This document shows, piece by piece, positions 9,001-32,000 of a stretch of DNA of 32,000 nucleotides. A program made the position numbers and the translations under genes. Every line of letters begins with the position of its first letter. The stretch's first letter is position 1. The DNA lies in contig NZ_MPKA01000065.1 in NCBI RefSeq assembly GCF_001945605.1, positions 30,001-62,000 of the forward strand, given 5' to 3'. The stretch comes from Dubosiella newyorkensis (lineage in GTDB: Bacteria; Bacillota_I; Bacilli_A; Erysipelotrichales; Erysipelotrichaceae). The notes below the pieces were generated by a model, which had not been told where the DNA came from, did no database searches, and saw only the letters and a list, made by a program, of their open reading frames with translations.

Positions 9001-9025
9001 CGTTTGAAGCTTTGAAAGTCACTTG
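1..9025 (-). repeat. tandem in-frame array of ~30 modules (~290-350 nt each) of Listeria-Bacteroides repeat (Flg_new / InlB B-repeat-like) type
   Basis: Each module reads (Y/F)xLxY(D/H/N)xNGGxG ... (V/I/L)F(V/I/A/L)GW(S/T) ... MPxxD(V/I)T(L/V)YA(V/L/A)W. GW codon pairs lie at approx 220, 511, 820, 1110, 1430, 1780, 2060, 2392, 2680, 3000, 3365, 3645, 3960, 4250, 4565, 4910, 5200, 5510, 5790, 6090, 6380, 6720, 7045, 7360, 7680, 7980, 8280 and 8638. The first module (approx 8780-9025) has the canonical GYKFTGNW form. The last module (TFTITYDLNGGSWNDPTTFTYPKG) is cut by the window edge. Confidence 0.85.
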
Positions 9026-12000: not shown

Positions 12001-13393
12001 TTTTTAAAGTTCCTGTGTTTGCGGTATTTCCACTTGTAGCATCCAAAACAACTTTCCCCGTAATGATCGGTGTACTTTCAATCTTGTCATATTGATCATC
12101 CGTTTCAACTCTTTCCATATTTTCATTAAGAGTATACGTTTTAATTTGAAGCTTGTTGTTTAAACTTGTATCGATCTTTTTATTCCATAAAGTGGTGTCT
12201 GGAGCCAAAATAATATTAAAGCTCGTGATCTGCGCGGTATGATGAAGTGAATAAACGATCGTGCCCGATCGTGGATGGTAATCTCCATATTTTCCATCGT
12301 TTTGACTTTTTAATCCCGACAAGGAGGCAGGTTCTACCCCTTCCACCTGTCCTTCCGAAGAGTTTGGAGTTGGATATTCTTTCACCACTAGGCCATCAGG
12401 AACGACGATTTCCACTTTTTTGTTTTGCAAATTTAATTCACTTTCCACCTCGATGTGCAAAGTGACTTGCTTGGTATAGTCAATCTTGAAACTGTGATTG
12501 CCGTTATCGTCATTAGTCAAAAGATCTTGTTTGACGTCATTCGCAATACCACCTCTAATTTCCGCCGTTTTGATTGCCATTTTTTTAGAGGTTGCTTCCA
12601 GTACAGAAGTCGAATCTTCATTCCCTTCCGCTAGCGTATTTTGCTTTTCTTTTTTTGATAAATCATTTTCAGTGGTTTCACCTTGATTATTCTCATCGGC
12701 AATAGCGCTACCCTCTTGCTGAGATTCATTTTCCAAGCCTTCTTTTTCTTGCTGTTCCTCTTCCTCCTGCCAGGCTTTCGCTTCCATGAAATCCTGGTAG
12801 GCGTTTGTCACCACGGTATAAAGCTTGGACAATGTTTGCTCGTCGGCTTGTCCGCTCTCCTCGATTTGCCCATCAAGCGCGTTCAGATGGCTGATTATGG
12901 CCTCTTCCTGTTTGAGCACGGCTTCCATAAAACCGTATTCGTCTTCTTCTAGCTGCGTGAGTTCATCCTCGTTCAAGGCGACGTAGGTGTCGTATGCGTG
13001 TTCTATACGCGTATAGACGGCTTGCAGTGGATCATCTTCCGCGCTTTCCTCTTTGAGGATGGCGATGATGTCTGCGATGTTCCTTTGCAAACATGTTATA
13101 CAGCGGTACTGGCACGGGTTCGTGCCGCACTGATCGTTATGTTCCGGATGATGCGCACAAAGGCCTTCCGTATTTTCTCCTTCGCTCCATTCCTTTTGTT
13201 CGATTGGTTCCTCTACAGACTGTTCTTCCACGATAACAGGCTCTTCTTCGCCTTCCTGCGCCCAAACGGGTATATGAATCGTGTTGGTAACGCTCAAAAG
13301 TGCGCAAAGTGATGTGGCAAGGAGTTTTCTTCCCATCGCTATGATCACTTTCCGCTCGTCAGTTCTTTGAAGCTTTTTCTTCTTCATCTTCAT
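1..13393 (-). CDS. giant secreted / cell-surface repeat protein, N-terminal part only (>=4,464 aa; C-terminus lies left of the window)
   Basis: Hand translation of the minus strand, line by line, from ATG 13393 (second ATG at 13387; SD AAAGGAG = plus 13397-13403) down to base 2 met no stop codon. Frame check: the start codon and the Trp codons of the recurring GW motif (first bases 8638, 5200, 2392, 511, 220) are all = 1 mod 3. Every minus-strand ORF the track lists inside 1-13400 starts at a coordinate = 0 or 2 mod 3. The ORF leaves the window, so no stop codon or C-terminal anchor is visible; this is presumably why the track omits it. Confidence 0.9.
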   Translation of the reverse strand, partial: MKMKKKKLQRTDERKVIIAMGRKLLATSLCALLSVTNTIHIPVWAQEGEEEPVIVEEQSVEEPIEQKEWSEGENTEGLCAHHPEHNDQCGTNPCQYRCITCLQRNIADIIAILKEESAEDDPLQAVYTRIEHAYDTYVALNEDELTQLEEDEYGFMEAVLKQEEAIISHLNALDGQIEESGQADEQTLSKLYTVVTNAYQDFMEAKAWQEEEEQQEKEGLENESQQEGSAIADENNQGETTENDLSKKEKQNTLAEGNEDSTSVLEATSKKMAIKTAEIRGGIANDVKQDLLTNDDNGNHSFKIDYTKQVTLHIEVESELNLQNKKVEIVVPDGLVVKEYPTPNSSEGQVEGVEPASLSGLKSQNDGKYGDYHPRSGTIVYSLHHTAQITSFNIILAPDTTLWNKKIDTSLNNKLQIKTYTLNENMERVETDDQYDKIESTPIITGKVVLDATSGNTANTGTLKTGPMISTKDDKTQFTTALNEEFKLRKIWFRSDKENYSLGMFFKKLTFDISLPYFEKSDGKRVYASYKRTEYSVSNPSNQSQLGLYDPKQPVVSKPKDQSGKGVVTLTWENIYIPSDEFFTPYFFWETEAPTAGTTIHWGEDRGNTENVYDSFHTKESEIVRGKPTIVGTVEHWDQQSDTDSNKQIANWEFKAKSFTANTGAKMYVGANNITPGVYKGNQVDSNIIYNLGGFQVVNKGTQASSPMTLTFTYNNTDKIGVVAQRIPATIGNTVNIKYTTTKHSEERDISSLRSENGYVLFNAKAAGLEEGEYFTNIIADVGSYDTDYRSYVNGRPLDPAGFAMTFGKLLNVSEGDNVEFATLKMAKTDNQEDKAEFDGNTTNEATSSIVIYDNFKNDQNDVQNKGEGIPLGIKNALDERRVSTPVLSTSSTVAGNNVNFDCEIGAMGYPYTTINISTSPIIYIRLPKKISIENLQLIQESGSTADEIFLTGEEIETGTVTETVLQRDVDYQISNPEDKGNFNLYKITFTKGKGWIGWFTEDLGQYRVRMVFTMQIAKDADAMTLDMRDCVRVKDANVPSYHDSRSATINLYTEQDTFDMDGDNDTAEYFSTFNINSSDTKLSIVAGRQGLTFGFDAKLCPDEKDCDCARTEGHEDSGYVNFDNTGEKVFLKDSDENIDLRFTIRNNTGRGFSEEDAKKFYYFIPVPKKGDFWDSHVQDNPFDFDMEMTGPARIAEDAHKGVRVQYSTTVDSKAKIGDTSHYNNINNYKSAEEIKDNEWKDVKMIRISVDPDYLDALTTQEQKANAIPKDAYIKIFLHYKQVDHDKLVGKVVNFGPCGYAPYSVGEATNGGHIPLPHIQIEFQTGIIAGTTFLDKNYNGIYNEGIDEIYTTPVKVEAPHESGIAQGDHESHETTTVNGKFELTGRRADKYPVRIINPGSPNANDNDPMQFSLPTSSEYGTFHSDDGKSATATIEVGKDGKADTNRNLWIGFQKPHQVTFKASNAHIGTDETTSISRNVWHGEQFSQDNKIPAILPEEGYKFTGNWIGTDQDGAEKKYTASEVKEMKIDSNQIFTAEVKKIYKLQFDGNGKSGGTVPSTEQHLEGDQFALGQGSNLQRGEALLVGWSEVPISNVLNENTSQEIQDIIHSFDSFTMPATDITLYAVWAKDANKNGSPDYNDNSVHVKYHSNKPDKEDQVISCLDHHVPNEPDVRLTPTAIVQGMNAEGKQVSYDFNEEKDEVVFLGWSETKHDLVETNETSQSVKTVTEVTMGADGKDVYAVWALDSNNNDTPDYEEWVHITYDLNGGKGNIVDTDHHFPEAKVQLSSDKPIYDSIDGKSVVFLGWSLEKKGIYSRADSDPSAELIKAATLGTKDLVVYAAWGYDEDANGKADVLEKYTLKYDVNGGKGSVPEAQTNISKRTQVSVSYELKPTRDDLDGQKVVFAGWSRTQSNKIFSANEVEELKSILITSEKIWIDAADVTLYAVWAKDTNANGIPDYTELVKVSYDGNAQQSGIVSSLPNASLHLPGSVAGLDFSKTPIHSDVNGKKVVFIGWTTKKDEKIYQEADTTPTTEKKITIPESTNGKKPADQIVYAVWGYDEDANGKADVLETFTLSYDLNGGSGTRPERVSNLKKGTSVNLAEGKNLKRKSKEIFVGWGITPVVEALDASTKEETINQILQANSNYSMPRQNIVLYAIWAMDINENGTPDYNETKYQVQYNANNGQANESVNCSHQHVAKETCALLKNASNGTLRFTKEHAVFIGWSKTQHQKNIQTTAEAKKAGIITELQITDGENKVYAVWAEDKNSNGSADFTETGYSILYHSNNDKGMVIRCGHHHVEKEAVTLFEPDQLVGSEDDINASAPHTFTRDQAVLIGWSKEKKQELVTSFSEKETAGIITQIDSMPASDQDVYAVWAIDQNKNGTPDYDESLYTLTFDANGGSIKASSSTYLYGETITLSKEPIHTDPQLVFAGWSETKLKPLSAGDQRPSLITKTYKMPNHDTTLYAVWTKDINRNGIADYLERSLTLNYDGNGSGATINGLPASSKNHVAGEQVELSQEKPSYGIDNVVFLGWSEKKSDSIYRANDPQPTLINTIRFGGKDLTVYAAWGYDSNKDGIADIDTSYIVSYDPNGGTGTIPQPSSHRAQESFTLHNHTNLVRQNCLFVGWSTKKINKVLDEDASPDDINSIIAADDYTMPSHDVTFYAVWAIDSNHNGKPDYADQAVHVRYHANNGTDQTFTCSHHHVVGTEATLFRTAPDGFTKSNALFVGWSLEKHEDIRTKGQLETVKFVESLEMKRSQNNVYAVWVTDSNGDGVADYEALYLVSYSPNGAIGNAPASSSHHEGDIVHIVQQVNELKKDGAIFAGWSETPINQTFSAQADPTLVKQIMTNYTMSMPSRNVTLYAVWAEDQNGDSIPDYGQNAHHVRYHANNGTSDTLECAHHHLEGTKAELVADAMNLYGKLNQSDTNKNHSFTMEDAVFMGWTTIKPESSIQSSEEEIKKYSIVSSITIQKEGNDIYALWAKDINHNGTADFLEHVKVTYEANAKESDVQNMPNDTDIHLPGDTIQLTGKPTCQNIDDTPVVFIGWTKKQNPSIVKRTDTLPQTLEELTFGKKDETVYALWGTDTNNDGTADVFDTYTLTYDLNGGKGIVPKPQNNIAKASNITISSKNDYTRNPKEVFVGWSLQKHKDPLKKSAEVLAPNSLYVMPVKDITLYAVWAQDNNGNGIADFYEKSLTIHYEGNAQNQGVLNNVPSDSTNHIVGETVTLEKKLPTHSAVDGKSIVCLGWSKELTDTIYKREDPLPDLIDQISLSDHDETLYAAWGYDSNHDGRADILDTYQVQYDANGGHGLDLATKKYRANESYTILHPQKTFKKDDLVFAGWSLEKLDTILKVDSNIEILKKLVTDDTPIMPYHDVTYYAVWAKDEDHDGTPDFAQNAAHIYYHANNVEEGEPELVVICPHHHLNGMNAELAQNANALYGSTEKDEHLKNYTFQKENAVFIGWSSQRIDLVDSKEKQQSLHLLDQVVLSTKAKTTNGSDVYAVWAIDTNQNNIPDYEEWIHLTYNANGGKDNSMPVDTKNYFPQANVPLIEEGKMAHRDENESAIVFIGWTSQKEDHIFKREEKAPTTIHTLTLQDKDATVYAAWGYDSNRDGIADVLETYSLAYDLNQGKGKRPESLTGLKKGAAIQLASESLLTRNEDEVFVGWSETQEKNAIEADATKSQLDLIKKPGSAWVVGPDDQILYAVWAKDHNHNGIADYMEKRFTLFYEGNAQNEGTVTSLPTSSKNHILNDRVTLVAKSPEHSDVNGVPVKFIGWSQQKIDHIFEREDPMPSTIQMITFESQDIHVYALWGYDRDGNGKADLLKDYTLSYDLNGKEGTVPSPQTVKAGSKIILEHPQGLKKGDAIFAGWSTEKIDLIVNVDPDIEILKTIVTNDEYMMPSNDVIVYALWAEDLDHNGIPDYAEKAVHISYHSNTGDEEQVVICPHHHIVQTKAVLSSSAQHLYGRTKEDATIKNHSFKKEKALFVGWSKTPQNDIETLEDHAKISQELLDSEIVLEDVNDVYAVWASDRNENGVADHQEFVRLNYDANAKEGLVKNLPESRKQCLPGATIVLEGEPVHEAVDGIQVKFIGWSQEALPILERKDEDPTSLLVQEVKLENHDLTVYAVWGYDTDQNGIADVLETYTLSYHLNGGRGELPTHVDPIKKGEQVSIFDQQAFVRSEDEVFVGWSLQQHEEAVDGKLYEKLKFSDKDLTMPANNVTLYALWAQDANQNGVADFKEMVQLIYNANTNSIGKAHGMPSRSFHLPGDTITLSQKKPTMSVNDGKCVVWIGWSEKALPIYSREDEDPENHLIKEVELIDQDQIVYAVWGYDLDRNGIADVFDTYSVYYDLNGGKGGDQKTQTNVKKGTKITVPNSDDLTRNENEVFAGWSLSKHEQAFGLDQNEELESLRVKEPVTMEAKDLTFYALWKKVDPEKEPTFTITYDLNGGSWNDPTTFTYPKG
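9040..9420 (-). other. SdrD-B / Cna-B-like (prealbumin-fold) domain inside the giant protein
   Basis: GIIAGTTFLDKNYNGIYNEGIDE...HETTTVNGKFELTGRRADKYPVRIINPG...NRNLWIGF resembles the GxIxGxx(W/F)xDxNxNG ... TTxxxGx(Y/F)x(F/L) ... YxV pattern of SdrD B-like repeats. Recognition is by eye only. Confidence 0.5.
13259..13393 (-). other. predicted Sec signal peptide of the giant protein (aa 1-45)
   Basis: Basic n-region MKMKKKKLQRTDERKVIIAMGRK, hydrophobic core LLATSLCALLSV, c-region ending VWA followed by QEGEEE. Starting at Met20 (ATG 13336) would give a more canonical length but has a weaker SD. Confidence 0.6.
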
Positions 13394-13454
13394 AATCTCC
13401 TTTCAACCTATCCATGACTTATCTGAAAATACTTTCTTAAATTCCTTTTTTAAA

Positions 13455-13483
13455 ATTATACTTATTTTTTTGACTTCAATCAA
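13455..13483 (-). promoter_or_regulatory. sigma-A-type promoter of the giant gene
   Basis: On the minus strand: TTGATT (13483-13478), a 17-nt spacer, then TATAAT (13460-13455). It lies ~60 nt upstream of the SD/ATG and downstream of the leuS terminator. Confidence 0.6.
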
Positions 13484-13534
13484 ATTAATTTGCGTTTTTC
13501 AAGCTTTTTACTTCAATTGTATTAAAAATGTTAC

Positions 13535-13569
13535 GACAAAAAAAGACTGCTACATTTTCTTAGCAGTCT
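13535..13569 (-). terminator. rho-independent terminator of leuS
   Basis: 9-bp perfect stem AGACTGCTA / TAGCAGTCT (13544-13552 with 13561-13569), 8-nt loop, then a run of T on the transcribed strand (plus-strand A run 13535-13543). It starts 9 nt after the leuS stop. Confidence 0.85.
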
Positions 13570-13577
13570 AGATTGAT

Positions 13578-15974
13578 TTATTTCGCGACAATATTGACAA
13601 CTTTGCCTTTGACCACGATGATCTTCTTGATCTCTTTGCCCTCGATATGGCGTTTGACCGAATCCAGTCCCAGAGCCTGCTCCTTCAAGCTCTCGTCATC
13701 CGAGCCTTGCTTCGTTTCGAATTTGCCACGCACTTTGCCGTTGACCTGCACGACGATCGTCACATTCTCTTCTTTAAGAGCGTTTTCATCATACGTAGGC
13801 CAAGGCTCATACGCGATCGATTCCTTCGAATCCGTTAAATACTGCCACAACTCTTCGCCAAGATGGGGAGCGAACGCCGAAAACATCTTCACGAACCCTT
13901 CCGCATATGGACGATACAGCTTCTTGCTTTTGTAAGCTTCATTCACGAAAATCATCATCTGCGAAATCGCCGTATTGAAGTTGAGTGTATCGATATCATG
14001 CGAAACCTTCTTCACCGTCTGGTTATAGACTTTATCCAAGCTATGATCGTTGACGTCACTGATTTCAACAGCTCCATGGATCAAACGATCCACCCGGTCC
14101 AGCCATTTTCTCGTTCCGTCCAGACCCGTCGTCGACCAAGGAAGACCCGCTTCCAAAGGACCCATGAACATCTCGTAAACGCGCAAAGCATCCGCCCCAT
14201 GACTTTCCACGATCTCATCCGGATTGACGACATTGCCTCTCGACTTCGACATCTTCTCGCCATTGCTTCCAAGGATCATCCCTTGATGGAACAGTTTTTG
14301 GAAAGGTTCTGGTGTAGGAAGGATTCCTTGATCATATAACACTTTATGCCAGAAACGGCTATACAACAAATGTAAGACCGCATGCTCCGCGCCACCTACA
14401 TACAAATCGACCGGCAGCCAATGTTTCAATAGCTCAGGATCCCCGATCGCCTTGTCGTTATGCGGATCGATATAACGCAAATAATACCAGCAGCTGCCAG
14501 CCCATTGCGGCATCGTATTCGTCTCGCGTACGCCCTTCACACCATCGATCTCCACATGTAAGAAGTCCGGACAATTGGCCAAAGGCGATTCTCCCGTGTC
14601 CGCTGGCTTGAAGTTTTCCGTGGCAGGAAGCTCCAAAGGAAGTTCTTCAACATCGACCGTGCGCATCGTACCATCCTCCATATGGATGATCGGGATCGGC
14701 TCGCCCCAATAGCGCTGTCTAGAAAAGAGCCAGTCTCTTAACTTATATGTCGTCTTTGCTTCGCCAACACCCTTCTCTTCTAGCCACTCGATCATTTTAT
14801 CGATCGCCTCTTGCTTGCCAAGACCATTCAGCCATTCCGAATTGATATGGACACCATCTTCTGTGAACGCTTCCTTTTCGATATCGCCACCCTCCAAAAC
14901 AGGAATGATCGGAAGCCCAAACTCTTTCGCGAACTCATAATCCCGCGTATCGTGAGCAGGAACCGCCATGATCGCACCCGTACCATAGCTTGCAAGAACG
15001 TAATCCGAAATATAGATCGGGATCTTCTTGCCATTGACAGGATTGATCGCATAAGCGCCCGTGAATACACCCGTCTTGTCTTTGTTCAGATCCGTACGCT
15101 CCAGATCCGACTTGCTTTGGCACTCCTTTTGATACGCCTCGACTGCCTCTTTTTGCTTAGGCGTCGTGATATCGCTCACAAAAGGATGTTCCGGAGCCAT
15201 GACACAATACGTCGCTCCAAACAATGTGTCGCAACGCGTCGTGAACACGGTAAACTCTTTATCGTGTCCATCGATCTTGAAGACGACATTCGCGCCCTTC
15301 GATTTACCGATCCAGTTTCGCTGCATTTCCTTTGTCGACTCAGGCCAGTCCACGAGCTCAAGATCATTCAAAAGCTGTTCGGCATAATCCGTGATCTTCA
15401 AGACCCATTGACGCATCGGCTTGCGAATGACAGGATAGCCGCCGCGCTCGCTCTTTCCATCAATGACCTCTTCGTTGGCGAGGACCGCCTTCAATTCAGG
15501 ACACCAATTGACCGGGATCTCATCCACATAGGCAAGCCCCGCATTGTACAATTGAATGAAGATCCACTGCGTCCATTTATAATAGCTCGGATCGCTTGTC
15601 GCGATTTCCCGATCCCAATCGTAGCTGAACCCTAATGATTTGATCTGATCGCGAAAATGATCGATATTCTGCTGGGTGAAGATCGAAGGATGATGACCCG
15701 TCTGGATCGCGAACTGCTCAGCTGGAAGACCAAACGAATCAAACCCCATCGGATGCAGAACGTTGAAACCTTCCATTCTCTTTTTTCGCGCGATAATATC
15801 TGTCGCCGTATAGCCTTCCGGATGCCCTACATGTAATCCATTTCCGCTCGGATATGGAAACATATCCAACACATAATACTTTGGTTTGGAAAAATCCGCC
15901 GTATCGGTCTTGAACGTTTTATTGTCTTCCCAAACTTTTTGCCACTTCTTCTCAATAGTCTTGTGATCGTACAT
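13578..15974 (-). CDS. leuS: leucine--tRNA ligase
   Basis: Track ORF 13578..16076. It contains the class I synthetase HIGH ([14 protein letters not shown]) and KMSKS (EKMSKSRGN) motifs and overall LeuS-like sequence. I place the start at [15 protein letters not shown] (ATG 15974, SD AGAGGT 7 nt upstream). The 34-codon upstream extension runs through the T-box terminator. Confidence 0.97.
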
Positions 15975-16005
15975 CGTATCTACCTCTATTCTCTCTAAAT
16001 AAAAT

Positions 16006-16214
16006 AAAAAAAACGCCCTTAACGATAAGGACGTTTGCACGCGGTACCACCTTACTTCTTGCCAAAAGGCAAGCACTCATTCCCTTTAACGCAAGGATCA
16101 CGGTTTCCATTACGAAACAGCTCCCCGACGAGTTCAAAGCCTTCCAACAAGGATTTTCACCAACCATCCTCTCTCTAGCGAATTCCAGCCTCTACTGCTT
16201 CGGTTCTATACCTG
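16006..16214 (-). promoter_or_regulatory. T-box riboswitch leader (Leu specifier) with intrinsic terminator
   Basis: Minus strand shows AGUAGA and AGAGAG elements, a GGUGAAAAUCC distal-loop-like element, and a specifier context GAA-CUC-G (CUC at 16132-16130, a Leu codon). The conserved T-box sequence AAGGUGGUACCGCG lies at 16053-16040. It is followed by a 10-bp terminator hairpin AACGUCCUUA/UAAGGGCGUU plus a U run (16036-16006). Confidence 0.85.
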
Positions 16215-16220
16215 TCTCAA

Positions 16221-25350: not shown

Positions 25351-26400
25351 ATGAAACGAAATGAAACGAGAAGTGTTCGCGTGGGTGATTTGATCCTTGG
25401 TGGAAACGACGAGGTGATCATTCAGTCGATGTGCAACGTTCCTACAAAAAACGCTAAAGAAGTGATCGAGCAGATCCTCGATCTTGAAGAGATGGGATGT
25501 CAAATGATCCGGGTTTCTTGCATGGATCTCAAGGATGCAGCGGCCATCAAAGAGATCAAAGAAAATATCCATATTCCTTTAGTGGCGGATATTCATTTTG
25601 ATTATAAGCTGGCGCTTGCCTGCATCGAAAATGGGGTGGATAAGATCCGTCTCAATCCGGGGAATATTGGTTCTAGAGAAAATGTGGAAAAGGTCGTCAA
25701 CGCCTGCAAGGAAAAAGGCATTCCGATCCGGATCGGGATCAATTCAGGTTCTTTGGAAAAAGATATTCATGAAAAATATGGCAAGCCGACTGCGGAAGGA
25801 ATGATCGAAAGCGCAAGAAGGCATGTCGAGATCTTGGAGTCGATGGATTTTTACGATACAGTGCTTTCTTTCAAATCGAGCGATCCGCTCTTATGTATCG
25901 AAGCGTATCGTCTTGCGAGCGAGACATTCGATTATCCGCTTCATTTAGGTGTGACGGAGGCTGGAACGATGATGACAAGCGCCATCAAGTCCTCTTTGGC
26001 TCTTGGCAATTTGTTGTTGGACGGGATCGGAAATACGATCCGGATCAGCGTAAATGGAGCTCCACAAAAGGAGATCCCGATCGTCAAAGAGCTTCTGAAG
26101 GATTGTGGTTTATTGAAAAGCGTGCCAAATTTGATCGCGTGTCCAACGTGCGGGCGAACGCAATGGAACATGGAGCCTGTCGTCAATTGGGTCGAATCGT
26201 ATTTACAGAAAGTGAATAAAGAGGTGACGGTTGCGATCATGGGTTGCGCGGTCAATGGGCCTGGCGAAGCGAAACATGCCGATATCGCGATCGCTGGCGG
26301 TAAAGACGAGGGATTGTTGATCAAGCGGGGTGTGATCATCGAAAAGATCCCGCAAGAGAAGATGGTGGAGCGCCTGAAGGAAGAAATTGATGCATTCTAA
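25351..26400 (+). CDS. ispG: 4-hydroxy-3-methylbut-2-en-1-yl diphosphate synthase (flavodoxin)
   Basis: IspG/GcpE-like throughout (VRVGDLILGG...IQSMCN...RINPGNIG...CPTCGR...GCAVNGPGE, giving the three Fe-S Cys). I place the start at ATG 25351 (SD GAGGT 6 nt upstream). The track start at 25318 adds 11 codons. Confidence 0.95.
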   Translation: MKRNETRSVRVGDLILGGNDEVIIQSMCNVPTKNAKEVIEQILDLEEMGCQMIRVSCMDLKDAAAIKEIKENIHIPLVADIHFDYKLALACIENGVDKIRLNPGNIGSRENVEKVVNACKEKGIPIRIGINSGSLEKDIHEKYGKPTAEGMIESARRHVEILESMDFYDTVLSFKSSDPLLCIEAYRLASETFDYPLHLGVTEAGTMMTSAIKSSLALGNLLLDGIGNTIRISVNGAPQKEIPIVKELLKDCGLLKSVPNLIACPTCGRTQWNMEPVVNWVESYLQKVNKEVTVAIMGCAVNGPGEAKHADIAIAGGKDEGLLIKRGVIIEKIPQEKMVERLKEEIDAF

Positions 26401-26449
26401 TACGAATCGAAAGTAAGAGTGTGCTATTTTTTTCTAAAAGGAGGCTGTT

Positions 26450-26977
26450 ATGGAAGACCAATATATTTATGAAACAAACGCGGATAATACGGCTCGTTTT
26501 GTGATCGGGACCAAGGGCAAAAATCCTTTGATCGTCATGAGCATCAATCCAAGTGTCGGCTCTCCGACTCGCACTTCTCCAACTTTAGGCACGGTTCGCC
26601 ATATTGCGGCGGATTATGGATACGACAGCTGGATCATTCTTTGTCTCTATCCGCAAAGGGCGACGCATTTGAACGAATTGGATCAAAACGCCGATCCGCA
26701 GCTTGTGGAAGAGAATGAAAAAGTCATCAAAGAAATCTTGTCTCAATTTCCAGATCATAAGATCTGGGCGGCGTGGGGAACGCATTATCATGCGCGCTTC
26801 TTCTTTCCGCAATGTTTGAAAAAGATCGTCGAGATCGCGAATGAATACCATGAATCTTGGATGCATTATGGTCCTTTAGATGAGGATGATACGCCTCGTT
26901 ATTGTTTGTATTTAGAAAATGGCGAAGGCTGGTATCCATTTGATGTGGAAGCGTTCTTAAAGAAAACTTTGTATTGA
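26450..26977 (+). CDS. DUF1643 domain-containing protein
   Basis: PLIVMSINPSVGSPTRTSPTLGTVRHIAADYGYDSWIILCLYPQRAT resembles the conserved DUF1643 N-terminal core (NPS...D.T...GY....NL). SD AAAGGAGG precedes the ATG. 175 aa. Confidence 0.7.
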   Translation: MEDQYIYETNADNTARFVIGTKGKNPLIVMSINPSVGSPTRTSPTLGTVRHIAADYGYDSWIILCLYPQRATHLNELDQNADPQLVEENEKVIKEILSQFPDHKIWAAWGTHYHARFFFPQCLKKIVEIANEYHESWMHYGPLDEDDTPRYCLYLENGEGWYPFDVEAFLKKTLY

Positions 26978-26980
26978 TCA

Positions 26981-27009
26981 AAAAGATCGGTCGCTTGGAT
27001 CGATCTTTT
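26981..27009. terminator. bidirectional terminator between the DUF1643 gene (+) and the recombinase gene (-)
   Basis: 9-bp stem AAAAGATCG / CGATCTTTT (26981-26989 with 27001-27009), 11-nt loop, with T runs on both strands. Confidence 0.7.
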
Positions 27010-27036
27010 TTCAGTATAAGTCGCTTTTCTTTTTTT

Positions 27037-27987
27037 TTAGCTCAGAGTCGATAATGCTCTCATAACGAGATCGATATCTTTATTTTCAAGTTCCTGAATA
27101 ATGTGTAAATAAGTTTTTTGAGTAGTCGTCATGCTGGCATGACCTAATCGTCTTGCTACACTGGCAGTCGATACACCCGCGAACAATAATAAGGATGCAT
27201 GGGTATGACGAAGTCCATGGATCGTAATGACCGGAATATTGGCTTCTTTGCAGTGGCGTTCCAATACATCGTTGACTGTTGAATTGTAAATTTTCTTATT
27301 TACAAATATTGGACGATCTTCGGGAAGACCTTGAATCAAGGATGAAAACTGGACGACAGTTTGCCAATCGATTTGGATCTTTCGAACTGAAGAGTGGTTT
27401 TTCGTGGGTGAAAATCCACCGTTTCCTTTATAATCCCATGTTTTTGATACTGATACTGTTTGATGGGCGAAATCGAAATCTGCTGGAGTGATCGCTAAAG
27501 CTTCTGAGAAGCGCATTCCTGTTTTCGCAACAAGTAGAATAAACCAATCCCATGTGATTTCTTCTTTCAAGTAAAGTGTTGATAATAACGTATGCAGTTC
27601 GTATTGATTCAAATATTTCAGCTTTTTAGGTCGTGGTTGTTTTCCTTTGATGATCGCTTTTCGAGTTGGATCTCTAGGAACCAATCCTTCATCGACCGCA
27701 TCCATGATCGCGCCTTTTAGTTGATGATGAAAGTCCATCGTAGTTTGACGCTCATGTTCGATCGCATACTCGTTTAAAATTTGTTGGTATGTGATCCGAG
27801 ACAAATCACAAAGTTTTAAGTTTGGGGCTAGCTTCCGAATCCACGAAAGACTCATATAATACTTATTCATTGTTACATCTCGGATAGCACCTTTCTTATA
27901 AACTTCGATCCATTTTTCAAAATAATCACAAAACAAAATTGTATTAGTTACTTCATTAATCATTCTTTTTTCTCCATCTTCGTTCAT
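27037..27987 (-). CDS. tyrosine-type site-specific recombinase / integrase
   Basis: The C-terminal catalytic region has the R...HxxR...Y signature: GMRFSEALA (Arg), HGLRHTHASLL (HxxR), RLGHAS and TTQKTYLH (Tyr). The N-terminal SAM-like core-binding domain is FEKWIEVYKKG...TMNKY. The ATG overlaps the stop of the upstream hsdS gene (ATGA). Confidence 0.9.
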   Translation of the reverse strand: MNEDGEKRMINEVTNTILFCDYFEKWIEVYKKGAIRDVTMNKYYMSLSWIRKLAPNLKLCDLSRITYQQILNEYAIEHERQTTMDFHHQLKGAIMDAVDEGLVPRDPTRKAIIKGKQPRPKKLKYLNQYELHTLLSTLYLKEEITWDWFILLVAKTGMRFSEALAITPADFDFAHQTVSVSKTWDYKGNGGFSPTKNHSSVRKIQIDWQTVVQFSSLIQGLPEDRPIFVNKKIYNSTVNDVLERHCKEANIPVITIHGLRHTHASLLLFAGVSTASVARRLGHASMTTTQKTYLHIIQELENKDIDLVMRALSTLS

Positions 27988-28520
27988 TGCGACTTATACT
28001 GATGAAGGGTGATAAGTTTATCAGCATGATACATAAATTGCCCTATATTAAACTGTTCATATTTTTGTTGTGGAATTTTTATTATAAAATTTCTAGCAGT
28101 TACTCCAGTTATTCCCTTTATGGATGATCCTTGAAGATTTAAATTTCCGTTTAAAGTCTTGTAACATAAAAACGTTCCAAATAGAGTATCAATATTTAAA
28201 TTACTAAAGGATATAAAATCTTGACTAGTAGCATAACTATAAGGGAAATATCCAACTTTTCCTACACCAACTCTAGTTACTATTGCTATTGAATTTGCAG
28301 GAACTTGCTTTGAAGCTGAGTTGTTCAAACCATTTTCAGAAATATACTTTTTAGGTTTTATATCAAATAATTTCCCCACCACTAAATCAGATGATTGAAT
28401 CCACGGTAAATTTCCATCCCAATACTTCTTAACTGAAGTTTTTGGAGTACCACCTCCAAAAAACTTATTAGCAATATCTCCCAACCTACGCTGTTCCCAA
28501 GCAGTAACTTTTTGGTAATT
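27984..28520 (-). CDS. hsdS: type I restriction-modification specificity subunit, half-size (single TRD), no ATG start
   Basis: The frame is open from 28520 and reads NYQKVTAWEQRRLGDIANKFFGGGTPKTSVKKYWDGNLPWIQSSDL...EQFNIGQFMYHADKLITLHQYKSQ. This is a typical TRD entry motif (GGGTP...W.G.IPW) and a conserved C-terminal helix. The only start candidate is TTG 28484, which the track prints as M. It could be a silent cassette or the 3' half of a disrupted full-length hsdS. Confidence 0.65.
   Translation of the reverse strand, partial: NYQKVTAWEQRRLGDIANKFFGGGTPKTSVKKYWDGNLPWIQSSDLVVGKLFDIKPKKYISENGLNNSASKQVPANSIAIVTRVGVGKVGYFPYSYATSQDFISFSNLNIDTLFGTFLCYKTLNGNLNLQGSSIKGITGVTARNFIIKIPQQKYEQFNIGQFMYHADKLITLHQYKSQ
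27998..28015. repeat. direct repeat B, copy 1 (ACTGATGAAGGGTGATAA)
   Basis: Exact 18-nt match to 28561-28578. It encodes the ITLHQ helix at the 3' end of the hsdS half-gene. Confidence 0.9.
28483..28503. repeat. direct repeat A, copy 1 (AACCTACGCTGTTCCCAAGCA)
   Basis: Exact 21-nt match to 29034-29054. It encodes AWEQRR at the 5' end of the TRD. Confidence 0.9.
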
Positions 28521-28543
28521 TTAAATTTCACTCACTTATAATT

Positions 28544-29146
28544 TTAATTTTCTAACTTACACTGATGAAGGGTGATAAACTTGTCTATATCCAAAAATAA
28601 ATTCCCGATTTTATTCTGTTCTTCTATACCTGGAATTAGAATAACTTGTTTAAAAAAATCTTCAGGAACTAATTCGTTCATCATAGTGCCAAGTTTAGTA
28701 GATTGATTAAGAATAGGCCTAAATATAGATTCTAAATAGAACAGTTTTTTTGTAAACAAAGGATTGAGCATCGATACTGGCCTAATTGATGAAAAACGAG
28801 GAGACATTAATCCAATACCCCTAGTATTTACAACAAATCTACCATGAGCAAATTGCTTATTAGAATGGCCTTCGAAACCTGCATCTCCTATTCTCAATAC
28901 TTTATAAGACTTAACGGAAGTCTCTGCAGATCCATTTCCATCTTTTTTATATTTCATAGTTGCTACGGACAATGTTTTATCAACTGTTATTCCAATTAAA
29001 TTACGTTCATTATTGATTTTATATAGTTCTCCAAACCTACGCTGTTCCCAAGCATCGTTAAAGCCCTTGAATCGAATTTGAGGAACATTAGACTGTTTTT
29101 GATGGATTTTTGTACTATTTACTTGTTCATTCTTGAATGTTTCCAT
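28544..29146 (-). CDS. hsdS: type I restriction-modification specificity subunit, half-size (single TRD)
   Basis: The N-terminus VPQIRFKGFNDAWEQRRFGELY and the C-terminal conserved region IEEQNKIGNLFLDIDKFITLHQCKLEN are typical HsdS elements. At 200 aa it is about half of a canonical two-TRD HsdS. ATG 29146 lies 2 nt after the hsdM stop. Confidence 0.8.
   Translation of the reverse strand: METFKNEQVNSTKIHQKQSNVPQIRFKGFNDAWEQRRFGELYKINNERNLIGITVDKTLSVATMKYKKDGNGSAETSVKSYKVLRIGDAGFEGHSNKQFAHGRFVVNTRGIGLMSPRFSSIRPVSMLNPLFTKKLFYLESIFRPILNQSTKLGTMMNELVPEDFFKQVILIPGIEEQNKIGNLFLDIDKFITLHQCKLEN
28561..28578. repeat. direct repeat B, copy 2
   Basis: Exact 18-nt match to 27998-28015 in the same orientation, at the 3' end of the first hsdS. 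Confidence 0.9.
29034..29054. repeat. direct repeat A, copy 2
   Basis: Exact 21-nt match to 28483-28503 in the same orientation, near the 5' end of the first hsdS. Confidence 0.9.
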
Positions 29147-29148
29147 AA

Positions 29149-31695
29149 CTAGTACCCTAATAAGCTTTTAAAAGCTTCCAGTCCTTTCATGTCATATTCA
29201 TTTCCTGTTAGATCATCGATCATTTTGGCAAGTTCTTGTTCAGTCTGATGGATTTGATCATCTAAATCATTCAGAGTTTCGCTATATTTATCTTCCAATT
29301 GCTCTAATTGTTTTTTAAGTTTTTCCATTACATTTTGAGGGATTTGAATGAGTTGATCCATTAATGGACTTATCCACTTTTCATAGACGAGCGCCTTAGC
29401 TTCTTCAATTGAAAGAGATTCAAGTTTATCTTTTGTCATAGCATGAATATTTTCCTTGCTTGTTTTGATTTCTTTTTGGATAGCTTTCTGCTCTTTCAAA
29501 AGTTTATTCGCTTCGTTTAATTTCTTAAGCAATTCATCATCATCTTTATCCTTTTTCAATTCTTTAATTCTATTAGTTAAGTTAGAAGTGACGAATTGTG
29601 TTCCTTCCTCATTGGCTAAATTCTCTTTTTCTTCTTCGTCTAAATTTTCAAGAATTTCTTGGATTTCATTATCAATTTGATAAATATGTTGCTCTAACTG
29701 TTCTATTTTTTTGAATTCTTCGGTAAAATATCGTCGTTCGACCAATTCAAATGGAATAATATGACCTTTCCAACCTTCTTGGGTTTCTACGTCTTTTCCA
29801 TTCTTTTTTTTCATCACTAAATTTGGATCGACTTTGGTCAACGCTCTTTCAGATTCATTTTGAATATTTTCCAAATCCCCAAGAATGACTTTCCAGTGAT
29901 TATCTAAAATTTGATATGCCTCATAACGATCGATCAACGAAAACTCTTTTAACTTATGAAATAAAAGATTTCCTAAATCATCTTCTTCTCGATTAAGATC
30001 GACCTCCATCATCCCTTCGATCAAACGCTGTTTTAAATCCGATTCAAACGAGTTAGACTCCTTATAAAAAGCTTTCTTAAACGAGTGAATATCGGAATCT
30101 TCTTCAAAAATCTGTTTTAAATCATTTCCTTTTACACTAACGTACGAGTCGTTCTTTTCATTAAATAGTTTCTTTTTTAGATTTGGGAAATTTTTCCAAT
30201 AGACATCAAATCGAGAAAGTTCCGATTTCGGAATTCCTCCATACATTGAAGCATACAAATCCCATGTTTCCGTAGGTTCAGAAGAATCTACATACCGAGG
30301 AATATTCAAGTTATAGTCATTTGCTCGAATTTCTTCTAAAGAAACAGTTCGTGAAAACTTATCTATTGTCTTTCTAGATACCACTACATCTCGAATTCTT
30401 TTGATATCTGATGCTCGTAAAACATTACTTTTGCCTGATTTCTCAAAATATTTGGAACTATCCACGATTAATACATCGTTATTCTCCCGTTTTTGTCGTA
30501 ATAACATAATAATCGTTGGTATACTCGTCCCATAAAAAATATTCGCAGGAAGACCGATTATCGTATCGATATTATTATTCTCAATCAAGTTTTTTCGAAT
30601 CTCGCCTTCCTCGCCACCACGAAATAATACACCGTGAGGAAGAACGATAGCCATAATGCCATCCGGCTTTATATGATACAAATCGTGTAATAAGAACGCG
30701 TAATCCGCCTTTGTCTTTGGAGCTACTCCATAACGACGATACCGAGGATCGTTTCTTTTCCCTTCCGGATCCCATTTTTGCGAATAAGGGGGATTAGATA
30801 CCACAGCATCCACATATAGTGGCATTCCTAACTTTGTTTCATTAGGTGGCCAATCATCTTCCAAAGTATCAGCATTTCGAGTAAAGATATTGCTCGGCTT
30901 GATTCCACGCATGATCAAGTTCATCCGCGTTAAGTTATATGTATTTCGCTTCAATTCTTGGGCATAATACTGAATTCGATCTTTGCTTTCTAGATATCGC
31001 GAAGCACTTTCTCCAATATTCAACAACAAAGAACCTGACCCACTCGTCGGGTCGTATATTTTAATTTCTTTTCGATCTTTTAAATGGTTCGCGACCAAGT
31101 CAGACATCAACACTGAAACTTCATGCGGTGTATAGAACTCACCAGCCTTCTTTCCAGCATTCGCGGCGAACATTCCAATTAAATACTCATAAACAAAACC
31201 AAGCACATCATAGTCCTGCTTACTATCCATTGGAATGTCCTTGATCAGTTGCAATAAATTAATGATCGCTTTCGTTTGAGATTGAGCACTATCTCCTAAT
31301 TTACTCAATCCCGTTTCCAAAGTTTCAAAAATTCCATCAAACACATCGCGATGTGTATTTGAAATCAAACGACTAAAGGCAGACAATGCTTCACGTACAT
31401 TTGAAACATCAAATTCCTTTTCATGTTCGATCCAAGTAGAAAACAAATTAGGATAACTAATAAAATATCCCAGACGATCTTGAATATATCGAACCGTTTC
31501 CTGATCTTCTTCAGTCACCAATGGTAACGTTTCTTCATCCCATCCATCATTAATCAGAAGTTTTAATTCCTGCTCTGACAAGTATTTGTAAAAAATAAAC
31601 CCTAGAATATAATCTTTATACTCACTTGCCTCGATTTTAGAACGCATCTGGTTTGCCGATTCCCATATTTTGGCAGCCAATTGCTGTTTATTCAT
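29149..31695 (-). CDS. hsdM: type I restriction-modification DNA methyltransferase subunit M, long form (~848 aa)
   Basis: HsdM N-terminal domain (LAAKIWESANQMRSKIEASEYKDYILGFIFYKYLSE), AdoMet motif I (IYDPTSGSGSLL) and catalytic motif IV (VVSNPPYSQKW). I place the start at ATG 31695 (GGAGGA 7 nt upstream). The track start at 31710 is a TTG. Confidence 0.9.
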   Translation of the reverse strand: MNKQQLAAKIWESANQMRSKIEASEYKDYILGFIFYKYLSEQELKLLINDGWDEETLPLVTEEDQETVRYIQDRLGYFISYPNLFSTWIEHEKEFDVSNVREALSAFSRLISNTHRDVFDGIFETLETGLSKLGDSAQSQTKAIINLLQLIKDIPMDSKQDYDVLGFVYEYLIGMFAANAGKKAGEFYTPHEVSVLMSDLVANHLKDRKEIKIYDPTSGSGSLLLNIGESASRYLESKDRIQYYAQELKRNTYNLTRMNLIMRGIKPSNIFTRNADTLEDDWPPNETKLGMPLYVDAVVSNPPYSQKWDPEGKRNDPRYRRYGVAPKTKADYAFLLHDLYHIKPDGIMAIVLPHGVLFRGGEEGEIRKNLIENNNIDTIIGLPANIFYGTSIPTIIMLLRQKRENNDVLIVDSSKYFEKSGKSNVLRASDIKRIRDVVVSRKTIDKFSRTVSLEEIRANDYNLNIPRYVDSSEPTETWDLYASMYGGIPKSELSRFDVYWKNFPNLKKKLFNEKNDSYVSVKGNDLKQIFEEDSDIHSFKKAFYKESNSFESDLKQRLIEGMMEVDLNREEDDLGNLLFHKLKEFSLIDRYEAYQILDNHWKVILGDLENIQNESERALTKVDPNLVMKKKNGKDVETQEGWKGHIIPFELVERRYFTEEFKKIEQLEQHIYQIDNEIQEILENLDEEEKENLANEEGTQFVTSNLTNRIKELKKDKDDDELLKKLNEANKLLKEQKAIQKEIKTSKENIHAMTKDKLESLSIEEAKALVYEKWISPLMDQLIQIPQNVMEKLKKQLEQLEDKYSETLNDLDDQIHQTEQELAKMIDDLTGNEYDMKGLEAFKSLLGY

Positions 31696-31749
31696 ATCCT
31701 TTTCCTCCAATACAAATCTATTTATTAAACATCTCTTCTGTTTATTCCC

Positions 31750-31758
31750 ATTATAGCA
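31750..31758 (-). promoter_or_regulatory. candidate extended -10 (TGCTATAAT) upstream of hsdM
   Basis: Minus-strand TGCTATAAT at 31758-31750, ~55 nt upstream of ATG 31695. There is no convincing -35 element. Confidence 0.4.
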
Positions 31759-31819
31759 ATCTCTAAAATGATAGGCATCTGGAACTAAGTAAAAGTTCGG
31801 AAAAAATATGATTTTAAAT

Positions 31820-31855
31820 AAAAAAAAACGAAGCCCTGCTTAACCAAAACTTCGC
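31820..31855 (-). terminator. probable terminator after the alpha/beta hydrolase gene
   Basis: Short stem CGAAG/CTTCG (31829-31833 with 31850-31854) with a large loop, followed by a 9-nt T run on the transcribed strand. The stem is weak. Confidence 0.4.
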
Positions 31856-31861
31856 TTATGT

Positions 31862-32000
31862 TTAACTCTTTTTCAACAAAAACTCCAAGACCACCTTATT
31901 AAAAGCTTCAGGATCCTTGTTTGCGACAAAATGATTTCCCTTCAAGATACAAAGTTTTGCGCCAGGAATCTTCTTTGCGATCGATCTTGTATGTTCTTCC
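31862..32000 (-). CDS. C-terminal fragment of an alpha/beta-fold hydrolase (5' end beyond the right edge)
   Basis: Minus-strand translation is EEHTRSIAKKIPGAKLCILKGNHFVANKDPEAFNKVVLEFLLKKS, with stop TAA at 31864-31862. The pattern IP.A.L..L.G.GH....E.PE.F...(I/V)..FL is the usual C-terminus of this fold, here with N-H in place of G-H. It is not in the track because its start lies outside the window. Confidence 0.5.
   Translation of the reverse strand, partial: EEHTRSIAKKIPGAKLCILKGNHFVANKDPEAFNKVVLEFLLKKS

Follow-up and report, generated by a model that had tools for sequence, protein, structure and literature searches.

The window (the whole stretch of 32,000 nucleotides of Dubosiella newyorkensis DNA that was analyzed) carries a block of Type I restriction-modification (R-M) genes on its minus strand. 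The sequence-only reading had placed hsdM, hsdS-a (S-a), hsdS-b (S-b) and a tyrosine recombinase in this order, and the coordinates were borne out, as was the layout of the flanks, with a hydrolase gene, a terminator-like hairpin and a promoter candidate upstream and a hairpin downstream. Genes and flanking features were as follows.

31862-32000, minus strand: 3' end of an alpha/beta-hydrolase gene, an unrelated flank (open reading frame ending ...NKDPEAFNKVVLEFLLKKS and a stop)
31826-31857, minus strand: terminator-like hairpin and T-run closing the hydrolase gene (13-pair stem, then TTTTTTTATTT)
31750-31758, minus strand: promoter candidate upstream of hsdM, extended -10-like TGcTATAAT (read from sequence only)
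29149-31695, minus strand: hsdM, 848 aa, long-form Type I methyltransferase subunit (HsdM_N and N6_Mtase, Pfam)
29152-30252, minus strand: C-terminal extension of HsdM, about 367 aa, a helical domain kept in relatives
28544-29146, minus strand: S-a, a chimera in which the start and leader of hsdS are followed by TRD 'a' and then by the shortened tail of silent cassette 1, ending ITLHQCKLEN and a stop (L001 comparison)
28562-29050, minus strand: TRD 'a', 489 bp (3 perfect copies in the resolved assembly L001)
27984-28520, minus strand: silent cassette 2 (= S-b), an open frame with TRD 'b' and the tail ITLHQYKSQ and a stop, with no ATG
27037-27963, minus strand: tyrosine recombinase (int), 308 aa (Pfam Phage_integrase, 9.8e-21)
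26980-27010, no strand assigned: hairpin between the convergent int and DUF1643 genes, a bidirectional terminator candidate (repeat search)

In a second assembly (L001, GCA_041448535.1), the counterpart of the hydrolase gene (9148-9834) matched Abhydrolase_1/6. A two-hexamer promoter scan did not call TGcTATAAT at 31758-31750, and a plus-strand terminator was reported at 26989-27005, within the 26980-27010 hairpin. The sole match of the tRNA/Rfam search was a T-box leader at 16024-16217. The block had been called AT-richer from two spot counts, 18/60 G+C (28561-28620) and 30/60 (14401-14460), and both were exact; in a windowed check, G+C was 34.7% in the block (27037-31710) vs. 44.1% in the rest of the window, and the block fell below the minimum of any equal-sized window elsewhere (39.2%).

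The ATG of hsdM was preceded by GGAGG, with an alternative TTG at 31710. The product (WP_076341451.1/OLU46403.1) carried both HsdM_N and an N6-adenine methyltransferase domain, matched TIGR00497 at 318 bits, and matched PADLOC PDLC03022 end to end at 1200 bits. Matches to PDB 3lkd (8e-117) and to the EcoR124 M protein (1.5e-74) were confined to aa 3-481 and about aa 3-481, respectively. The C-terminal extension was modeled by AlphaFold with a pLDDT of 92.1; it had no PDB fold match with E < 0.1 (Foldseek; best E = 0.12), no PDB sequence match and no Pfam family above threshold (sub-threshold KIF21A_4th only). A 292-aa standalone homologue was found downstream of an unannotated 531-aa ORF, and the two may be a split hsdM. 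The HsdM family was spread across several phyla; in a scan of genome contigs for relatives the best identity was 63% or less, D. newyorkensis itself not being among the matches.

The two S ORFs had been taken for tandem half-size hsdS genes. They are instead promoterless TRD cassettes with truncated tails, the first of them fused to the hsdS leader, i.e., silent TRD cassettes rather than a pair of independent genes. S-a (OLU46402.1, on a 77.6-kb contig) had no Pfam match and matched PADLOC Specificity_I over positions 3-196 of the ~413-position model; its 5' part is L001 hsdS and its 3' tail is L001 cassette 1. S-b matched Methylase_S and PADLOC positions 225-393 of 411. The frame reported for S-b (27984-28520) was correct, although 28520 is merely the first codon past an in-frame stop and not a start; the earliest possible start is TTG 28484, with no spaced Shine-Dalgarno. 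Other strains (P0174, P0173) have TRD b in the hsdS that is expressed. Both S ORFs end directly after ...ITLHQ(C/Y)K and are without the distal ~16-20 residues of the conserved helices found in the full-length HsdS of the same strain. An HsdS with two TRDs and central and C-terminal conserved helices is present in L001 (413 aa), and the window has only truncated single-TRD ORFs. Judged from these ORFs, the locus as written in the window is probably inactive, since the dimerization helix of S-a is truncated and S-b is without a usable start.

Each TRD is bounded by short direct repeats, designated R5 and R3, and copies in the window were located by repeat search.

29028-29054, minus strand: R5 copy 1, ..GCTTGGGAACAGCGTAGGTT.., encoding AWEQRR (27 nt, 96% repeat family)
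28477-28503, minus strand: R5 copy 2, head of cassette b
28555-28578, minus strand: R3 copy 1, TTATCACCCTTCATCAGTGTAAGT, encoding ITLHQCK
27992-28015, minus strand: R3 copy 2, end of cassette b
27011-27024, plus strand: inverted copy of the R3 core and tail (TCAGTATAAGTCGC; 2 copies vs. 0.01 expected)

The R5 motif is TTGGGAACAGCGTAGG (WEQRR; 2 copies observed vs. 0.02 expected) and the R3 motif is TTATCACCCTTCATCAG.GTAAG (ITLHQ.K). Both share the core CAGCGTA(A/G)G, and every R5 and R3 site is on the same strand. They were kept at the nucleotide level in all int-bearing loci, a GC-rich actinobacterial one included, whereas the two relatives that have an HsdM of this family but no int were without them. 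Neither the window nor any other D. newyorkensis locus contained R5 or R3 in inverted orientation, and silent copies in opposite orientation or inverted repeats inside hsdS were likewise absent. The only inverted element at the locus is the 14-nt core after int, and 27011-27024 together with 27989-28002 brackets the recombinase gene. The same kind of inverted copy lies next to int in L030/31 (18 nt) and in L027-29 (10 nt perfect, about 14/16 by eye), and the inverted counterpart in L008 is a whole inverted cassette.

Identical HsdM was found at the same site in L001, where the order is hsdM, hsdS (413 aa), fic, hsdR (1,040 aa), two silent cassettes and int, all co-directional. Window positions 32000 to 28555 correspond to L001 9696-13141, and window positions 29052 to 24144 to L001 17639-22547. 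The comparison gave 0 SNPs over 9,904 and 3,445 bp (13.3 kb), whereas other strains differed from the window by 0.7-0.9%, and by this identity L001 and the window are the same strain. Relative to L001 the window is without exactly 4,995 bp, comprising the rest of hsdS, fic (207 aa, between hsdS and hsdR) and hsdR (EcoR124-type, with an EcoR124_C domain), so that in the window contig the hsdS leader and TRD 'a' are followed directly by the tail of cassette 1. The junction falls inside TRD 'a'. As the three TRD-a copies in L001 are identical over about 490 bp, with identity ending exactly at R5 and R3, the junction can be placed only within TRD a, and site-specific and homologous recombination leave the same junction; with three identical repeats, L001 itself could be imperfectly resolved.

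That no restriction subunit adjoins M and S holds for the ORFs of the 32-kb window, none of which is hsdR, but not for the locus of the same strain, in which hsdR lies between hsdS and the cassettes. The search for hsdR outside the window returned an identical HsdR both in L001 and as OLU47866.1, with an identical Fic as OLU47865.1. The window proteins are OLU46399-46420, and the accession and UniProt series indicate that OLU47865 and OLU47866 come from the draft genome of the window itself. The suggestion that HsdR is encoded elsewhere was therefore right for the draft assembly and wrong for the genome, where the gene belongs between hsdS and the cassettes.

The other suggestion was an orphan Type I methyltransferase, perhaps switchable, with an epigenetic regulatory role; in such a system M and a half-size S would methylate a palindromic bipartite motif. 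Points in favor of an orphan are a window without hsdR, an intact hsdM with a good RBS, and half or truncated HsdS being able to dimerize in other systems (EcoDXXI/EcoR124 truncations). We now consider an orphan highly improbable: the same strain carries fic and hsdR inside the locus, and an identical HsdR is on record for the same genome series, so a cognate hsdR is in the genome if the OLU series is one assembly. In addition, S-a is without the distal half of the central helix of full-length HsdS, S-b is without a start and RBS, and the exact 200-aa S-a product had no match in the contig index and was unique to one assembly.

The window is best read, at a probability of roughly 80%, as one configuration of a complete, recombinase-shuffled Type I R-M locus, and the 4,995-bp omission is most likely an assembly shortcut through the thrice-repeated 489-bp TRD, because identical hsdR and fic are on record for the same draft genome. 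Assemblers usually break at repeats of this kind instead of bridging them. Alternatively, a minority of the sequenced culture may have carried the locus in an excised or deleted form. Recombination at TRD a (or R5) between hsdS and cassette 1 would have excised a fic-hsdR circle of about 5 kb and left the chromosome restriction-off and probably modification-off, either transiently, as an excision-reintegration intermediate, or through a deletion that became fixed in some of the cells. The window is the exact chromosomal product predicted for this S1 x c1 excision; the same architecture with other TRDs occurs in an independent 52-kb metagenome contig (L036), and ORFs corresponding to the S2 x c1, S2 x c2 and S1 x c2 products are on record (P0171, P0185, P0178, P0181), so that R-less junction contigs or ORFs are found in several other samples. 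Contigs of about 4 kb with fic-hsdR only, bounded by R3 and R5, also recur in assemblies (L026). RecA acts readily on direct repeats of 489-513 bp, and circles are documented for the pneumococcal tvr locus. Still, we rate a physically real R-less form as less likely than not: all R-less assemblies are apparently short-read, each junction crosses a TRD of which the nearest resolved locus has duplicate copies, the very situation in which assembly shortcuts arise, and fic-hsdR is still in the same draft genome. The excised circle would carry neither the recombinase gene nor an origin, and its loss would therefore be irreversible. Short-read contigs cannot settle between an artefact and a real R-less form.

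Evidence of shuffling came from the assemblies of the species, in which seven TRD types (a-g), 100% identical wherever present, occupied any of four slots; all TRD sites were direct and the cassettes always co-directional. Between L033 and L036, with 2-3 mismatches in 11 kb, TRD e lay in different slots; this slot change was seen between assemblies, not within one clonal culture. A literature search on D. newyorkensis and restriction-modification found no reports.

The recombinase (OLU46420.1) had been given an ATG overlapping the S-b stop. That in-frame upstream ATG (27987) would make a protein of 316 aa; the start is instead ATG 27963, backed by the RBS, by homologues and by NCBI. The protein fell below the cut-off for every named NCBIfam Xer/integron family (sub-threshold matches only). 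The recombinase family scan scored at least 8,000 candidates, all with E ≤ 1e-30, and the best matches outside D. newyorkensis were ~77-81% identical among the matches listed. Orthologues (69-87% identity) occupied different genomes and different chromosomal sites and always lay directly after co-directional hsdS cassettes; S/S' lengths differed among samples with an identical recombinase. Because orthologues adjoin hsdS cassettes and TRDs are permuted in near-identical strains, the proposal of a specificity-switching enzyme gains support in a modified form, with a putative role for the recombinase in shuffling. Were the R-M genes instead cargo of a low-GC islet acquired by horizontal transfer, with the recombinase as its integrase (the other function suggested for it), the clearly low G+C of the block, the position of int at its edge and the scatter of the HsdM family across phyla would be accounted for. 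A search for direct and inverted repeats (26400-32000) found no convincing att-like pair flanking the block, however, and the tRNA/Rfam search found no tRNA near it. The constant position of orthologues immediately 3' of an hsdS cassette at varied chromosomal sites, the inverted R3-core copies that bracket them and the co-occurrence of the R5 and R3 DNA motifs with the recombinase also argue against an islet integrase, which we regard as very unlikely.

From the observed anatomy, TRD permutation, repeat conservation and recombinase-cassette linkage, an excision-reintegration chemistry may be proposed for the full locus, i.e., hsdM, hsdS (leader, TRD, central helix, TRD, C-terminal helix), fic, hsdR, cassettes 1 and 2 and the recombinase. 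The direct R5/R3 sites would be recombined by the recombinase, or the duplicated TRDs by RecA. Excision at one repeat type would release a fic-hsdR circle, and reintegration at the other repeat type would swap a silent TRD into the expressed hsdS, altering methylation and restriction specificity. More speculatively, and in our estimate unlikely, the R-less form could be a programmed state, in which the recombinase reversibly excises a non-replicating hsdR-fic circle in a combined ON/OFF and specificity switch, any TRD serves in either HsdS half, and the inverted cores around int flip or limit recombinase expression. If so, a subpopulation would turn restriction off transiently or permanently and be open to foreign DNA, and a new specificity would be installed on reintegration at the other repeat type.

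Reading the window as a configuration of a complete locus removes a false lead, the 'orphan' methylase being an ordinary R-M system seen with its repeats collapsed or its parts rearranged, and such pseudo-orphans are to be expected from short-read assemblies wherever TRDs are duplicated. In gut Firmicutes, loci of the co-directional form M-S-R-S'-int are probably frequent, judging by the recombinase family and the four loci inspected, and would diversify methylomes and barriers to phage and DNA uptake within strains. D. newyorkensis is a much-studied mouse-gut commensal, and diversification at strain level bears on engraftment, phage susceptibility and genetic tractability of gut commensals.

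Compared with EcoR124I-type (Type IC) systems, the locus shares EcoR124_C in HsdR, the match of HsdM aa 4-481 to the EcoR124 M protein (1.5e-74) and the order M-S-R, and differs in its long-form HsdM, inserted fic, silent cassettes and recombinase. Half-size or truncated HsdS are able to homodimerize, as in EcoDXXI/EcoR124I truncations and half-hsdS of lactococcal plasmids. S-a resembles these in having one TRD and part of the central conserved helix, but ends about 16-20 residues short of the point needed to rebuild a full-length coiled coil, and it is the product of a join to a silent cassette, not of a dedicated gene.

Inverting hsdS shufflons or 'epigenetic invertons' (SpnD39III ivr/cod with PsrA/CreX; E. 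faecalis EfiA; B. fragilis) have been described (Huang et al., 2020, PMC7672463; Atack et al., 2020, PMC7394358). Like them, the Dubosiella locus has silent partial copies besides an expressed hsdS, a tyrosine recombinase of its own (about 308 aa; efiA is 930 nt) and repeats in conserved hsdS regions; in L008, a relative from Fusibacter, inverted cassettes lie on either side. The D. newyorkensis cassettes, in contrast, are all direct, with only the 14-nt inverted core downstream of int, and reciprocal recombination between them would therefore delete or excise rather than invert.

The closest known system is the excision-reintegration locus tvr of Streptococcus pneumoniae (SpnIV; TvrR), in which two types of direct repeat sharing a core, a locus recombinase and, experimentally, circular intermediates were shown, and in which tvrT is a doc homologue (Kwun et al., 2018, PMC6265443). 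Both are Type I loci whose several TRD segments all point the same way and are found in differing slots within and between strains, and both have short direct repeats of two kinds with a common core, a tyrosine recombinase encoded at the locus and a Fic/Doc-superfamily gene (tvrT there, the 207-aa Fic in Dubosiella). They differ in that the Dubosiella recombinase lies at the far 3' end after hsdR, whereas that of tvr lies between TRD groups, and in the ~370-aa extension of the Dubosiella HsdM. No phd-like antitoxin or attenuator was seen in the Dubosiella locus; L001 has only fic between hsdS and hsdR and no phd-doc pair beside int. Any Dubosiella TRD fits the N- or C-terminal slot, unlike the separate N- and C-terminal sets of tvr, and hsdR and fic lie inside a segment bounded by direct repeats, so that excision would remove restriction. 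Direct-repeat, tvr-like TRD shuffling is not confined to pneumococcus and occurs in D. newyorkensis.

The genes downstream of the hydrolase hairpin formed a single co-directional set on the minus strand, as follows.

Features of the R-M block in the window
31857-31826, minus: terminator-like hairpin, before which the alpha/beta-hydrolase gene ends
29149-31695, minus: hsdM, 848 aa from an ATG behind GGAGG (HsdM_N and N6_Mtase domains, TIGR00497 match)
28544-29146, minus: S-a, a 200-aa half-size hsdS ORF
27984-28484, minus: S-b, a 166-aa half-size hsdS ORF
27037-27963/27987, minus: tyrosine recombinase gene (int), last of the set
26980-27010: hairpin between the R-M gene set and a convergent DUF1643 gene

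The sequence-only reading had described this order (hsdM, two half hsdS, recombinase), a terminator and hydrolase gene upstream of hsdM and an AT-rich block with no hsdR adjoining M/S. ORFs, domain matches and the hairpin bore out the layout, and no hsdR was found within the 32-kb window. G+C was 34.7% inside the block and 44.1% outside it, lower than in any stretch of equal size elsewhere, and both earlier spot counts were exact. As gene set, composition and hsdR absence all hold in the window, the observation was correct. Two starts were revised: the S-b ORF stands but not its start at 28520, the first candidate being an unsupported TTG at 28484, and the recombinase stands but not an ATG overlapping the S-b stop, as a start at 27963 is backed by an RBS, homologues and NCBI. 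The DUF1643 gene (26450-26977, plus strand, convergent with the recombinase) recurs across a great many D. newyorkensis contigs and looks like core flanking sequence outside the block.

Elsewhere in the window, one uninterrupted reading frame (2-13402, minus; at least 4,467 codons) continues past the left end and accounts for the strong AT skew and the absence of other long ORFs there; given its signal-peptide-like start (MKMKKKKLQR...VWAQE), it probably encodes a giant surface protein. An 832-aa ORF (13578-16076), presumably an aminoacyl-tRNA synthetase gene, is preceded by a T-box leader (16024-16217, minus; Rfam RF00230, 113.5 bits).

An identical HsdM is encoded in NCBI assembly GCA_041448535.1 (locus L001), flanked as in the window by the hydrolase gene and by DUF1643-ispG-PBP. 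After hsdM, L001 has a 413-aa hsdS, a 207-aa fic, a 1,040-aa hsdR (HSDR_N, SWI2_SNF2, T1R_D3 and EcoR124_C domains), two cassettes and the recombinase. Window 32000->28555 corresponds to L001 9696-13141, and window 29052->24144 to L001 17639-22547. An extended comparison gave 0 SNPs over 9,904 + 3,445 bp, repeat boundary excepted, whereas other D. newyorkensis genomes were 0.7-0.9% different; the window is therefore L001's strain minus 4,995 bp.

Short direct repeats bound each target-recognition domain (TRD), R5 at the 5' and R3 at the 3' side. R5 (27 nt, ...GCTTGGGAACAGCGTAGGTT..., encoding AWEQRR) begins, and R3 (~24 nt, TTATCACCCTTCATCAG.GTAAG, encoding ITLHQ.K) ends, both S-a and S-b, with two copies of each in the window vs. 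0.02-0.08 expected; both ORFs stop a few codons past ITLHQ. Each half ORF carries one TRD, S-a aligning to positions 3-196 and S-b to 225-393 of PADLOC specificity-subunit profiles (~411-413 positions). The L001 HsdS reads leader, TRD a, ...ITLHQRKCDQLKNIKKSLLEKLF..., TRD a, ...ITLHQRKVEKLKKVKASLLEKMFV; 3' of hsdR, cassette 1 comprises TRD a and the tail CKLEN-stop, with neither leader nor start, and cassette 2 comprises TRD b and the tail YKSQ-stop. From these sequences and TRD-a identity, S-a is assigned as hsdS leader, TRD a and cassette-1 tail, and S-b as silent cassette 2. If the window arrangement is real, methylation and restriction would probably both be off, because S-a ends ~16-20 residues short of the distal end of the central helix and S-b has no start.

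The expressed L001 hsdS (12550-13791) thus holds the same TRD twice, which predicts a palindromic target, and a third copy is in cassette 1. The three copies are identical over ~490 bp, identity stopping exactly at R5 and R3; as reciprocal exchange alone cannot give three identical copies, duplication, gene conversion or residual L001 assembly errors would be needed. The L001 fic gene (13800-14423, 207 aa, Fic-family, HPFREGNGRSGR motif) lies between hsdS and hsdR, its end overlapping the hsdR start, and no antitoxin was seen.

The window comes from a 77,655-bp draft contig of Dubosiella newyorkensis, where its proteins carry the accessions OLU46399-OLU46403 and OLU46420. Extending the hsdR search beyond the window, as had been proposed, recovered an HsdR (OLU47866.1) and a Fic (OLU47865.1) identical to those of L001, numbered in one accession and UniProt series (A0A1U7N) with the window proteins; the 413-aa full-length HsdS had no OLU accession. 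With that HsdR on record and hsdR inside the same-strain locus, the orphan methyltransferase suggested earlier as one reading is not supported, and a clonal orphan is very improbable. Contigs of ~4 kb with fic-hsdR only, R3 and R5 at their ends, are the usual assembly product of the D. newyorkensis locus (L026, 11 samples), and hsdM-bearing contigs (L002-L007) stop within the repeat after one k-mer. On the simplest reading, fic-hsdR ended up on a small contig of its own in the draft assembly and leader, TRD a and cassette tail were joined; the missing 4,995 bp would then be an assembly shortcut (probability about 0.55-0.6). A real excised or deleted subpopulation is a possible but less probable source, to which recurrent contigs and ORFs arranged as in the window lend weight.

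Recurrent R-less forms (contig L036; ORFs P0171 to P0185)
L036: M; leader, TRD d, cassette-1 tail; TRD e, cassette-2 tail; int
P0171: leader, TRD d, central helix, TRD a, CKLEN-stop
P0185: leader, TRD b, central helix, TRD c, YKSQ-stop
P0178: leader, TRD b, YKSQ-stop
P0181: leader, TRD b, CKLEN-stop

These are exactly the chromosomal products predicted if direct hsdS and cassette sites recombine, releasing a fic-hsdR circle. Every such junction also crosses a TRD that the nearest resolved locus has in duplicate, and shortcuts during assembly could equally have produced them.

TRDs differed in arrangement among D. newyorkensis assemblies. Seven types (a-g), each 100% (occasionally 99.8%) identical at every occurrence, occupy any of four slots: S1 and S2 of the expressed hsdS, and cassettes 1 and 2.

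TRD types by locus
L001: hsdS a, a; cassettes a, b
L034: hsdS b, c; cassettes g, a
L033: hsdS d, e; cassettes d, f
L022: hsdS ?, a; cassettes c, b
L024: hsdS not covered; cassettes c, a
L037: hsdS not covered; cassettes a, g

TRD e occupies S2 in L033 vs. cassette 2 in L036, although the two differ by no more than 2-3 mismatches in 11 kb. R5 and R3 have the same strand at every site. The arrangements identify the locus as a putative TRD-shuffling system.

The recombinase search returned at least 8,000 candidates at E ≤ 1e-30; among the matches listed, the best outside D. newyorkensis were gut Firmicutes (~77-81% identity). A Huintestinicola-like lineage carries M(534 aa)-S-R-S'-int, all co-directional, with S/S' of 405/148, 198/363 and 407/374 aa in three samples sharing an identical recombinase. 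In Fusibacter, long-M-S-R leads into an inverted cassette, a direct cassette, int and a further inverted cassette, and in a Senegalimassilia MAG (L013) M and a half-S precede inverted int and hsdR. Other D. newyorkensis genomes carry a second locus type, ordered S-R-S-M-S'-int; one example (L030 2541-10927, GCA_948699105.1) lies at a different chromosomal site, with an 87% identical recombinase and the same R5 and R3 motifs. R3 (CTTATCACCCTTCATCAGCGTAAG) and R5 (TTGGGAACAGCGTAAG), which have CAGCGTAAG in common, were almost base-for-base conserved in all int-bearing loci examined, a GC-rich actinobacterium included, and absent from both int-less long-HsdM family members, Myroides and Aquimarina. 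Judged by sequence, the recombinase goes with the hsdS cassettes.

An inverted copy of sequence at and after the R3 core brackets the recombinase gene in every locus examined: 14 nt in the window (27011-27024 vs. 27989-28002; 0.01 expected), 18 nt in L030 (9957/10939), a 10-nt perfect match extending to ~14/16 by eye in L027 (9969/10947), and a whole inverted cassette in Fusibacter (L008 18106/19114). This suggests that inversion can affect int, or a larger segment such as that of the Senegalimassilia MAG, perhaps as a control of recombinase expression.

The HsdM C-terminal extension (~367 aa, aa ~482-848; window 29152-30252, minus) is conserved from end to end across several phyla (54-62% identity), with standalone homologues of ~292 aa. 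It is predicted with high confidence to form long helices and two beta-hairpins (pLDDT 92), with neither a sequence nor a fold match in the PDB.

Recombinases associated with hsdS have been catalogued in six clades, with direct instead of inverted repeats in a small fraction of loci (Huang et al., PMC7672463). Inverting shufflons are defined by inverted hsdS copies, which the D. newyorkensis locus lacks. In the pneumococcal tvr/SpnIV locus, co-oriented TRD segments are shuffled by recombinase-driven circle excision and reintegration, guided by two direct-repeat types sharing a ~11-bp core, and a phd-doc pair lies inside the locus (PMC6265443). The D. newyorkensis locus likewise has TRD segments in one orientation, two direct-repeat types with a common core and its own recombinase, and the L001 Fic-family gene recalls the doc-like tvrT. 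It differs from tvr in that int comes last at the 3' end, hsdR and fic fall within the interval predicted to be excisable, TRDs are slot-agnostic and HsdM is of the long form. With these differences, the locus is a predicted member of an established class, the phase-variable Type I R-M systems shuffled by a recombinase, and within it of the direct-repeat (tvr-like) type.
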